Source of the DNA: an uncultured Candidatus Saccharibacteria bacterium
GTDB taxonomy: Bacteria > Patescibacteriota > Minisyncoccia > Phycocordibacterales > DATDWN01
DNA: 64,000 bases
Assembly: GCA_964576615.1 (NCBI GenBank)
Contig: CAZNUU010000002.1
Span: 27,428-91,427, forward strand
Direction: 5' to 3'
Positions 5,529 through 7,511 of this stretch are shown here, piece after piece (position 1 is the first letter of the stretch; the number at the start of each line of letters is the position of its first letter). The notes below the pieces were generated by a model. The model ran no database searches. It was not told the DNA's origin and saw nothing but the letters and a program-made list of their open reading frames with translations. The translations under genes and the position numbers were made by a program.

Positions 5529-7511
5529 ATGACAAAGAAAAAGATTCTGGTTGGTCCGATAAGTGTCAACACAAAAGGTGTTGGTTTTTTTAACATTGAA
5601 AACGAAAAGGGCAAAATAATAAAAGAAGAATCCATTGAAATTCAACCAGGAAATCTAAATAAGGCTCTGCATGGCGATAGAGTAGAGATCTCACTTACTG
5701 GAGAGAAGATGAAAGGTAGAAAACAAGGCAAAGTCGAGAAGATTTTGGAGCGCGCAAAAAACGAATTTGTGGGAGTGGTTGAAAAACACGACGGTAAAAC
5801 TTATGTGGTCCCAGACGACAAAAGATTATACGTAGATATTTTTTTACCAAATAAGAAGAGTGTGGAAGAGGGCAACAAAGTCCTGGTAGAGATTGTTAAT
5901 TGGGACTCACTCGAGGGGAAAATCGTAAAGGAAATTGGGAAAAAAGGTGAAAATAACACAGAGATGGAAGCGATTGTCTTGGAAAGAGGATTCCGGGTTG
6001 AATTCCCACCACAGGTTGAACGAGAAGCACAAAAGGAGAAAGAGGGGTACAAAAATAAATTCGAGGAAGAGGTCAAAAGCCGTCGTGATATGAGAGAGGT
6101 AACGACAATGACGATTGACCCAGTAGATGCAAAAGATTTCGACGATGCGATCTCGTTTAAAGAGCTGGGTGGAGGCGAGTATGAAATTGGAGTTCATATT
6201 GCTGACGTTTCTTACTTTGTTACACCCGGCACAGAACTAGATCGTGAGGCTGAGAAAAGAGGTCTCTCTGTTTATTTAGTCGACAGAACAATACCAATGC
6301 TCCCAGAGATTCTCTCGAATGATCTTTGCTCCCTTAATCCAAATGAAGATAAATTTACTTTTTCTGCTGTTTTTAAAATGAATGAAGAAGGAAAAGTTTT
6401 GGATGAATGGTTTGGTAAAACTGTCATCCATTCGGACAGAAGATTTACATACGAAGATGCTCAGGCCGTTATAGATGCCCCGACGCGCGATGCGGTCGGG
6501 GGGCCGACCTCCGACAATGATAGTCGGGGCGTCGGCCGAGATTTTCAAAAAGAACTTCGAAAATTAAAAGAAATCGCCCAGAAATTAGAGAAGGCAAAGT
6601 TTGGTGCAGGCGCAATAAATTTTGAAACAGAGGAAGTGAAATTTGTCCTGGACGAAAGCGGGCGCCCGATAAGTGTCTACAAAAAACAAAGACTTGAGAC
6701 ACACAAGTTAGTGGAGGAATACATGCTTCTAGCTAATCGCTCTGTGGCAAAATTTATTTTCCTCTCCCAAAACAAAGAGATAAAAAATCGCCTAAAGCAG
6801 TCCGTCTACAGAATTCACGACAAACCAGATAGGGATAGAATTCAGGACTTAGCAATATTTTTGAAAGCTCTAGGATTTGATCTTAAGAATAAAGACGGCG
6901 AAGTAACTTCTCGCGATATTAATAACTTACTAAAGCAAGTGGAGGGCACAGCAAACGAGGAGCTGATAAAGACAGCGACCATTCGAAGCATGGCCAAAGC
7001 TGTGTACTCGACTAAAAACATCGGCCACTTCGGTTTAGCCTTTAGTTATTATACTCATTTCACGTCCCCTATTAGACGCTATCCTGATCTTTTGGTTCAC
7101 AGATTTTTAGAAAGAGAACTCAAGGGTGGCAAAGTCGAACAAGATGAGTATCAAAGGTTCGAAAGTATCTGTCTTGCCTCCTCTGAACTTGAGAAAAAAG
7201 CTTCGGACGCAGAAAGAGCTTCCATAAAATATAAACAAGTGGAATACATGCAAAACCATGTGGGTGAAGAATTTGAAGGTACAATTATGCGCGTGACTGA
7301 TTGGGGAATATTTATAGAAGAAAAAGAAACAAAATGCGAAGGCATGGTACGACTTCGTGACCTGGGAGATGATTATTGGGTATTTGATGAAAAAAACTAC
7401 ACTGTAAAAGGTGAAAAGACTGGAAAAAAATACGTCCTTGGTGACTCAGTAAAATTTAAAGTTGTGAGTGCGGACCTTGAGAGACGAGCTTTGGACTATC
7501 AAATTGTGTAA
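5529..7511 (+). CDS. rnr: Ribonuclease R (RNB family 3'-5' exoribonuclease) with in-frame GC-rich insertion
   Basis: 660 aa. RNB motifs TIDPVDAKDFDDAIS and HFGLA..YTHFTSPIRRY, C-terminal S1 domain. Insert DAPTRDAVGGPTSDNDSRGVGRD at 6477-6540. Confidence 0.9.
   Translation: MTKKKILVGPISVNTKGVGFFNIENEKGKIIKEESIEIQPGNLNKALHGDRVEISLTGEKMKGRKQGKVEKILERAKNEFVGVVEKHDGKTYVVPDDKRLYVDIFLPNKKSVEEGNKVLVEIVNWDSLEGKIVKEIGKKGENNTEMEAIVLERGFRVEFPPQVEREAQKEKEGYKNKFEEEVKSRRDMREVTTMTIDPVDAKDFDDAISFKELGGGEYEIGVHIADVSYFVTPGTELDREAEKRGLSVYLVDRTIPMLPEILSNDLCSLNPNEDKFTFSAVFKMNEEGKVLDEWFGKTVIHSDRRFTYEDAQAVIDAPTRDAVGGPTSDNDSRGVGRDFQKELRKLKEIAQKLEKAKFGAGAINFETEEVKFVLDESGRPISVYKKQRLETHKLVEEYMLLANRSVAKFIFLSQNKEIKNRLKQSVYRIHDKPDRDRIQDLAIFLKALGFDLKNKDGEVTSRDINNLLKQVEGTANEELIKTATIRSMAKAVYSTKNIGHFGLAFSYYTHFTSPIRRYPDLLVHRFLERELKGGKVEQDEYQRFESICLASSELEKKASDAERASIKYKQVEYMQNHVGEEFEGTIMRVTDWGIFIEEKETKCEGMVRLRDLGDDYWVFDEKNYTVKGEKTGKKYVLGDSVKFKVVSADLERRALDYQIV
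6477..6540. repeat. Mini-element family II, copy 2, in-frame in rnr
   Basis: gccccgacgcgcgatgcggtcggggggccgacctccgacaatgatagtcggggcgtcggccgag. Shares CCCGACGC..CGGTCGGG..GCGTCGG with the trmD copy. Confidence 0.7.

Follow-up and report, generated by a model that had tools for sequence, protein, structure and literature searches.

A widespread polar double-hairpin element inserted in frame in the RNase R gene of a Saccharibacteria bacterium

Hairpin elements in rnr and trmD

We analysed a 64,000-nt stretch of DNA from an uncultured Candidatus Saccharibacteria bacterium (assembly GCA_964576615.1, contig CAZNUU010000002.1, positions 27,428 to 91,427 of the forward strand; hereafter the window), in which the genes for RNase R (rnr) and TrmD (trmD) each carry a short insert that folds as a double hairpin. 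The window has a GC content of ~41%, and the rnr segment, at ~70–75% GC, is one of its few sharp GC islands. The genes and features at the locus, in window coordinates, are:

5529..7511, + strand: rnr, encoding RNase R (660 aa), host gene of the 60-nt element; assigned by ortholog search and Pfam domains
6478..6537, + strand: long-loop solo copy of the double-hairpin element; 60 nt (20 codons) that keep the frame, gene-sense orientation
6478..6501, + strand: hairpin 1, CCCCGAC-G-CGC-GAT-GCG-GTCGGGG; from the RNA fold and columns 1–24 of the family alignment
6502..6537, + strand: hairpin 2, GGCCGAC...GTCGGCC; from the RNA fold, with outer pairs that covary family-wide
6511..6515 paired with 6523..6527, + strand: third hairpin nested inside hairpin 2, CCGAC-AATGATA-GTCGG; from the RNA fold
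3375..4121, − strand: trmD (248 aa), host gene of the second copy; assigned by translation
3990..4034, + strand: short-loop solo copy of the double-hairpin element; 45 nt (15 codons) that keep the frame, antisense to trmD

The window RNase R contained RNB, S1, CSD2 and OB_RNB domains (precomputed Pfam assignments), matched the RNase R structure 8cdu in the PDB (E = 4e-125) and had its nearest orthologs among proteins of Zambryskibacteria- and Paceibacteria-type Patescibacteria. A preliminary description, made from the letters of the window, had placed an in-frame mini-element in rnr at 6477-6540, and both the sequence and its translation in the rnr frame, DAPTRDAVGGPTSDNDSRGVGRD, agreed with it; the location held while the limits did not, the element proper being the 60 nt at 6478-6537. 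This insert is stop-free and its length is a multiple of three, so that the rnr frame runs on with 20 extra residues, an example of the peptide spanning it being AVGGPTSDNDSR. Folding of the rnr segment yielded two adjoining hairpins at −45.7 kcal/mol (z = −5.0 versus shuffles), and the trmD segment 3991-4035 likewise folded as two adjoining hairpins, the z range of both elements being −3.7 to −5.0. Nested forms of hairpin 2 were also present in loci L029, L096, L139 and L143.

Alignment of 120 RNase R proteins revealed a six-residue loop, GKxDGP, in 119/119 of the other orthologs at the site where the window protein has 22 aa. The insert is absent from every one of these orthologs, and is thus neither ancestral nor common to relatives. 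At the closest relative, locus L001, whose RNase R is 78% identical, the site reads GGC AAA ATG GAC GGT CCA without an insert. Judged from these sequences, the rnr insertion postdates the split of the lineage from its closest sampled relative; it was precise, and no target duplication accompanies it. The rnr gene with its insert was identical in two independent Logan assemblies, SRR12313479 and SRR12313480, showing that the insert is no assembly artefact. In the AF2 model of the window RNase R, the insert takes up residues 317-338, flanked by helices 308-316 and 340-359, and is predicted as coil, with a predicted local distance difference test (pLDDT) score <50 for residues 322-336; the Bacillus subtilis structure aligns with a gap at the insert. 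The model thus puts the insert in a loop of the RNB domain, with a helix on either side.

The same RNase R loop carries a different GC-rich palindrome, CCTGCCTGC..GCAGGCAGG, at L002 6945-6980, as a 36-nt in-frame insert (LPAMPAHAGQAG). This palindrome was also found at L016 5249-5268, L070 2601-2620 and L110 2362-2381. RNase R has, in addition, a second insertion site for double-hairpin copies among the loci collected.

The trmD insert encodes PRRQKGSGSRPKASG, and its position is ambiguous by 1 nt owing to T flanks. Comparison with the trmD gene of L002 showed a clean 45-nt insertion between AAA and AAA with no target duplication, and the copy was 45/45 identical in L001; the syntenic trmD genes of both loci carry PF01746. 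The trmD copy is an older insertion of the compact 45-nt subtype, which prefers T-runs. Between the window and L001 the trmD genes are 82% identical overall and 59% identical at third positions. The element together with ~20–25 nt on each side was 100% identical (window 3960-4060 versus L001 4040-4140), which could mean either that the DNA is constrained or that the segment was recently exchanged. A contig of an independent assembly of the same organism starts inside the trmD copy (L003 1-36), consistent with the element being repeated in that genome, as contigs tend to end at repeats.

A family of polar double hairpins and its copies inside genes

The motif CCCGACGC occurred 4 times in the window compared to 0.59 expected, and hairpins of the form CCGAC..GTCGG 4 times compared to 0.5 expected, all four of the latter within the rnr and trmD elements. 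The spacer between CCCGACGC and CGGTCGGG measured 3 nt in the trmD copy and 6 nt in the rnr copy, rather than the 4–7 nt first given for it. A 20-base core pattern, CCCGACGC N3-6 CGGTCGGG NNN CCGA, scanned over one genome per GTDB species, matched at least 119 loci, with at least 85 low-GC loci (34–57% GC) and 34 high-GC loci among the matches listed. All low-GC loci shown continue into the 3′ arm of the second hairpin. The 34 loci of >62% GC were rejected as chance matches, nothing following the pattern and hairpin 2 being absent. A Candidate Phyla Radiation (CPR) label was found on 48/52 low-GC loci whose titles were checked; these labels include Saccharibacteria, Zambryski-, Kaiser-, Adler-, Taylor-, Wolfe-, Nomura-, Roizman- and Berkelbacteria, Spechtbacterales and Paceibacterota. 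The family and its subtypes are defined as follows:

Family hairpin 1: (N)CCCGAC-GC..CG-GTCGGG(N'), with a covarying closing pair; matched by rnr 6478-6501
Family hairpin 2: NNCCGAC-loop-GTCGGN'N', abutting hairpin 1 and thereby giving the element its polarity; GGCCGAC...GTCGGCC at rnr 6502-6537
Short-loop subtype: hairpin-1 loop GCTTTCG or GCTTGCG, typically 45 nt, T-rich flanks (TTT before the element), 20:3 antisense in genes
Long-loop subtype: the type of the rnr copy, usually after TAG or CAG, 8:4 sense in genes

A covariance model, R1, was built from an alignment of 66 copies in other genomes. Three pairs not fixed by the search pattern covaried in this alignment: pair 1/24 (CG 36, UA 26), pair 25/60 (CG 31, UA 21, AU 8, GC 2) and pair 26/59 (CG 36, UA 18, GC 11). 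Pairing was found in 99.2% of stem cells compared to 24–60% in slid controls. R1 scored the rnr copy (6478-6538) at 49.1 bits on the + strand and 35.8 bits on the − strand, with E ~1e-9, and the trmD copy (3990-4035) at 60 and 39 bits, respectively. These scores bear out the core that the preliminary description had seen in both copies. Model searches of CPR loci collected ~90 copies, with 2–3 copies within 8 kb at some loci. Hairpin 1 of the rnr copy recurs identically at L087, and its nested hairpin 2 recurs in near-identical form at L029. Taken together, these results show the rnr segment to be a solo copy, recently and precisely inserted in frame, of a polar double-hairpin element that is widespread.

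No further R1 match above 11 bits was found anywhere in the 64-kb window, which thus holds exactly two copies. Two sites once put forward as additional members fell away, the one at 29218 with 7 bits under R1 and the GC hairpin at 45857-45871 with no R1 score and no relation to the family. Beyond the window, the motif search that the preliminary description had proposed found many more copies, in at least the 85 low-GC loci noted above; the spread over CPR lineages, the copies in tRNA D-loops and the link to a GIY-YIG nuclease lay outside the view that a single window affords. Four matches on viral contigs were all due to chance (64–72% GC, without hairpin 2), so that they give no evidence of a phage vector. 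An Rfam search at gathering and relaxed thresholds returned no family match, and an intein, a group I/II intron or a known ribozyme was rejected on this ground and because the insert has only 20 aa. A DNA uptake sequence was likewise rejected, as CCGAC and GTCGG together occur 56 times in the window compared to 56.8 expected and are not enriched. [quoted passage not shown]

Both window copies lie forward on the + strand and hence in opposite orientations relative to their genes, a comparison that is decidable since the element is polar. Among 35 copies in uninterrupted long open reading frames (ORFs), 24 were antisense and 11 sense to the gene, in line with the earlier proposal that the family inserts either way. 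An ORF that spans the element already implies a kept frame; frame preservation was therefore assessed from the flanks, using copies flanked on each side by 50 or more codons without a stop. The frame was kept by 32 copies and broken by 9, where chance would keep it in one third, which upholds the expectation that copies are enriched for lengths divisible by three. Depending on orientation and frame, certain peptides recur (APTPEGVGVPTESVG, KPRRQKGSGSRPKASG, PPTLAVGAPTSGGVG and SPDV..). The same DNA thus yields different peptides, indicating that no single peptide is under selection.

All 10/10 host ORFs tested were conserved housekeeping genes: an RNase T-type exonuclease, Def, a class II aminoacyl-tRNA synthetase, the linker of RpoA, YchF, a glycosyltransferase, DnaK, KsgA, the CCA-adding enzyme and PheS. 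Judged by eye, Pol I, UvrB, IF-2, GatB, RecR and a number of ribosomal proteins also appear to be hosts. The host sites that we examined fall in loops or linkers, and copies in genes have been filtered for frame; family-wide, copies persist in essential genes when the frame is kept and the site lies in a loop or linker. The preference of the short-loop subtype for T-runs, which read as Lys-rich AAA on the coding strand, would explain its antisense bias. Insertions were precise and without target duplication at the trmD and tRNA D-loop sites, and removal of the element from the tRNA D-loop junctions restores TAGCTCAGTTGG exactly.

Several sites were used repeatedly. A copy lies just before WLEM(A/G)GAG of PheS in two genomes in opposite orientations (L077 4904-4949 and L108 5464-5506), and L084 416-455 and L025 166-205 also share a site. 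An L7/L12 ORF with a copy was seen in five loci (L005 1026-1068 and four others), the position being judged from the sequence to be the hinge.

tRNA D-loops, a GIY-YIG nuclease gene and the origin of the copies

Many long-loop copies lie in the D-loop of a tRNA 5′ fragment directly upstream of an intact tRNA, and at some of these loci an 86-aa GIY-YIG ORF stands between the fragment and the intact tRNA. The GIY-YIG family was the most recurrent neighbour gene, at 10/84 CPR loci. As a reverse test, 80 metagenomic loci (L128-L207) were picked solely by similarity of the GIY-YIG protein. The element was present within 140 nt upstream of the GIY-YIG start codon at 58/78 loci by the strict double-hairpin pattern and at ~67/78 by judged model matches, a range of 74–86%, compared to 0/851 control windows. 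A tRNA begins within a few bases of the GIY-YIG stop codon at 69/80 loci, representing 11 amino-acid specificities. The 9 nt 5′ of the element equal the 5′ end of this tRNA after the ORF in 36/51 loci, the element being placed after tRNA gene position 10 or 15. The arrangement, often with further hairpin copies downstream, can be written as:

Module: [tRNA nt 1-10/15, then element, then rest of D-arm] - 86-aa GIY-YIG ORF - intact tRNA
Further instances: L070 1860-2450, L073 920-1380, L096 1-540 and L112 2080-2660

The GIY-YIG ORF matched PF01541 above threshold over residues 2-70 of 86, leaving no room for a separate DNA-binding domain. The solved structures nearest to it are those of UPF0213 proteins and of the structure-specific nuclease SLX1, not I-TevI. 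The long-loop subtype appears to be a near-constant part of this tRNA–element–GIY-YIG module.

At L112 2418-2660, a tRNA-Val-like gene has its D, anticodon and T loops each occupied by one double hairpin; this gene copy follows directly on an intact tRNA-Val, which itself follows a GIY-YIG ORF. In the window, a second copy of the 3′ end of tRNA-Ser(gga) (58785-58872, − strand) lies ~155 nt away (58619-58650 versus 58774-58805), a fragment beside a gene that resembles the GIY-YIG modules without having a hairpin element or ORF.

The reading that we favour, to which we give a probability of roughly 0.7, is that rnr carries a solo and translated copy of a selfish, GC-rich, polar double-hairpin element of ~40–60 nt that has spread in CPR genomes, probably mobilised by a GIY-YIG nuclease. 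We infer that the element is non-autonomous and owes its movement to the associated nuclease. The kinship of this protein with UPF0213 and SLX1 led us to propose that it would recognise extruded hairpins and nick there, whereupon copies of the element could be pasted into new sites during repair or replication. More tentatively, and with greater doubt than belief, the double hairpin can be pictured as the DNA (or RNA) partner of an undescribed CPR mobile system, in which the hairpin would direct a minimal SLX1/UPF0213-like nuclease to tRNA D-loops and other sites, the ~25-nt tRNA copy would be a long target duplication or a guide-like segment, and the solo hairpins of rnr and other essential genes would be by-products. 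There is a real chance that the nuclease–hairpin–tRNA module represents a new type of mobile system.

Several observations weigh against this account. At the rnr site, excision of 6478-6537 gives GAT GGA GAT TTT (D-G-D-F) compared to D-GKxDGP-F of the orthologs; four ancestral codons are thus also gone, so that either the event was no pure insertion or the loop had been altered beforehand. Translation of the rnr insert is deduced from conservation of the frame and is to that extent presumptive. The AF2 model is moderate (mean pLDDT 68.6) because the alignment was shallow, and it served only to place the insert between helices. Three low-GC loci bear non-CPR labels. With just 2 copies in 64 kb, the copy number is modest. 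The nuclease link is an association, of the kind that tied repetitive extragenic palindromic (REP) sequences to their REP-associated tyrosine transposases (RAYTs). The short-loop subtype, dominant in genes, is nearly absent beside GIY-YIG ORFs (2 copies in 192 kb). The 64-kb window holds no GIY-YIG homolog, so that mobilisation of the rnr and trmD copies would have to have occurred in trans.

Among the other explanations, the one that survives best is that a Y1 (HUH) transposase moves the hairpins as single-stranded DNA, as RAYTs do REP/REPIN sequences or as happens with IS200/IS605-derived palindrome-associated transposable elements (PATEs), the GIY-YIG link then being incidental (for instance, because both favour tRNA regions). 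Hairpins, the lack of target duplication, placement 3′ of a short subtype-specific sequence and the orientation bias in genes (24 opposite versus 11 same) would all fit, and such traits are typical of IS608/RAYT single-strand transposition chemistry. However, no transposase family recurs in the 8-kb neighbourhoods of the 84 CPR loci, where the top neighbour is GIY-YIG; the element stands at 74–86% of loci chosen by their GIY-YIG protein, at a fixed distance from the start codon, compared to none of the 851 controls; and no sequence outside the hairpins could act as an IS608-type guide or cleavage site. We therefore consider a Y1 transposase unlikely.

Slightly below it we place the possibility, also improbable, that the element is kept for a host function, as a signal for RNA processing, pausing or stability or as a flexible PT..VG peptide linker, its copies having been domesticated. 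Covariation of the stems would agree with this, as would the complete identity of the trmD copy and its ~20–25-nt flanks despite 82% identity of trmD (59% at third positions) and the reuse of the same loops and linkers in PheS (both orientations), the L7/L12 hinge and the RpoA linker. RNase R itself, however, does not need its copy, which is missing from 119/119 other orthologs; insertion in either orientation and several frames gives unrelated peptides (APTPEGVGVPTESVG, KPRRQKGSGSRPKASG, SPDV..); copies are also intergenic or in tRNA fragments; and recurrence in loops is the outcome expected from purifying selection on random insertions.

Removal of the element from RNA as a mini-intron or processing cassette, leaving mature rnr mRNA and tRNAs without it, would match the copies lying exactly in tRNA loops, including the D, anticodon and T loops of the L112 tRNA-Val-like gene, and the precision of insertion, by which exact removal would restore the original sequence. 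Efficient removal would make needless the strong frame bias and the stop-free sequence of the gene copies, no Rfam ribozyme or intron matched, and most tRNA-embedded copies sit in 5′ fragments beside an intact tRNA, not in a functional gene, which together make this explanation very improbable. A local accident (slippage, a templated repair patch or an assembly chimera) with a chance likeness to the trmD segment would agree with the mere two copies in the window, and template switching can make short GC-rich palindromes, but it is excluded by the 49 bits (E ~1e-9) that a model from other genomes gives the rnr insert, by the identical hairpin 1 at L087 and near-identical nested hairpin 2 at L029, and by the agreement of independent assemblies.

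Relation to known systems and other features of the window

In its behaviour, the element comes closest to the Rickettsia palindromic elements (RPEs), which are ~150 bp long, lie in frame in unrelated housekeeping genes, were judged compatible with the protein fold and are regarded as selfish (review PMC10969869). Like these, it is a palindromic repeat found in frame within protein genes of a bacterium with a reduced genome, at sites that the fold tolerates. Unlike the RPEs as described, it is 45–60 nt long (40–60 nt in the family), forms a polar pair of hairpins with a CCCGAC stem, occurs in many CPR lineages rather than in Rickettsia, has tRNA D-loops among its targets and shows a link to a nuclease gene.

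In its logic, the nearest known system is the REP/RAYT pair. REPs are extragenic and number in the hundreds, and the enzyme on which they depend is a HUH transposase of the Y1 class; dispersed REPs that also flank the gene for their presumed mobilising enzyme were reportedly described by Nunvar 2010, Bertels and Rainey 2011 and Ton-Hoang 2012. The CPR element resembles this system in that dispersed short hairpins also lie beside the gene of the presumed mobilising enzyme, and the associational argument is the same. In contrast to REP/REPIN sequences, both window copies are intragenic, at 2 copies in 64 kb, and in contrast to RAYTs, the flanked gene encodes an 86-aa GIY-YIG domain (PF01541), not a Y1 transposase.

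With MITEs (Correia, ERIC, Nezha), which have inverted-repeat ends, the element shares a small size and probable non-autonomy. Its trmD copy has 8-nt ends CCCGACGC/GCGTCGGG and its rnr copy 7-nt ends, but pairing in the family runs hairpin by hairpin and not end to end. It differs from MITEs in lacking a target-site duplication and in being shorter than most of them. MITEs can also fuse in frame with host ORFs (PMC10969869). No parent insertion sequence or transposase cluster was found among the ORFs of the 84 CPR loci (8-kb neighbourhoods), nor was TnpA or TnpB found in the 8-kb neighbourhoods of CPR loci. IS200/IS605-derived PATEs have end hairpins, make no target-site duplication and insert 3′ of a fixed short target. 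The element has no target-site duplication and has subtype-specific 5′ flanks (TTT or TAG), but no guide or cleavage sequence lies outside the hairpins.

The closest nuclease context is that of T4 SegB, described in PMC2330249 as a GIY-YIG nuclease whose gene lies in a tRNA gene region and which is required for preferential inheritance of that region. As in the SegB case so described, the GIY-YIG gene stands in or beside tRNA genes, in the long form of the family (L128-L207) and not at the window copies. Unlike SegB-type homing endonucleases, the CPR ORF is a bare catalytic domain closest to UPF0213/SLX1, accompanied by a hairpin element, a duplicated tRNA 5′ fragment and solo hairpins dispersed into protein genes. 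In size, host range, extragenic location, target duplication and enzyme class, the element departs from the defining features of RPE, REP/RAYT and SegB.

Fungal mitochondria reportedly harbour GC clusters, double-hairpin elements and byp elements (work of Paquin 2000, Weiller 1989 and Lang 2014). These resemble the CPR element as GC-rich hairpin mini-elements that spread in AT-rich compact genomes, some of them inside coding regions; they differ in belonging to organelles and have no sequence relation to it. Ribosomes skip byp elements, which do not have to be in frame, whereas the CPR element preserves the frame.

CPR genomes are among the smallest and most streamlined, yet essential genes of many CPR lineages (those for RNase R, TrmD, DnaK, PheS, RpoA and ribosomal proteins) carry one selfish hairpin element. 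On our favoured reading of the rnr segment as a copy of such an element, this is a second, independent and much broader case of the protein-coding palindromes known from Rickettsia. It accounts for lineage-specific insertions in loops, which interfere with ortholog alignments and gene calling in metagenome-assembled CPR genomes, and presence or absence of the element can serve to mark the history of strains and lineages. Its close association with a bare GIY-YIG domain and with tRNA D-loops points to a mechanism of mobility without a description in the literature searched.

The window contains further repeats. A stretch of ~750 nt without a long ORF (45152-45906), for which Rfam gave no match, has promoter-like TTGACA-N17-TATAAT repeats at 45229 and 45571 and also contains the GC hairpin at 45857-45871, followed by a hairpin that by eye is terminator-like; these features are candidate small-RNA genes. 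One family of intergenic repeats of ~100–120 nt lies at 3137-3257, 7513-7633 (inverted) and 35564-35660, its inverted pair flanking the trmD–rnr block, and another of the same size range lies at 3267-3372, 62014-62119 and 30432-30467. A second, unrelated family of in-frame hairpin inserts has the core CTAAATCCAGCTTCGCTGGATCGGGCGA and occurs at 108-150 (in a − strand ORF) and 18009-18051 (in a + strand ORF), both copies lying in long ORFs and encoding an identical peptide, ARSSEAGFREK. In trmD, at ~3895-3950, there is a related insert of 51 nt (TKSAKGGSSDQRSWFRK) that L001 and L002 lack.

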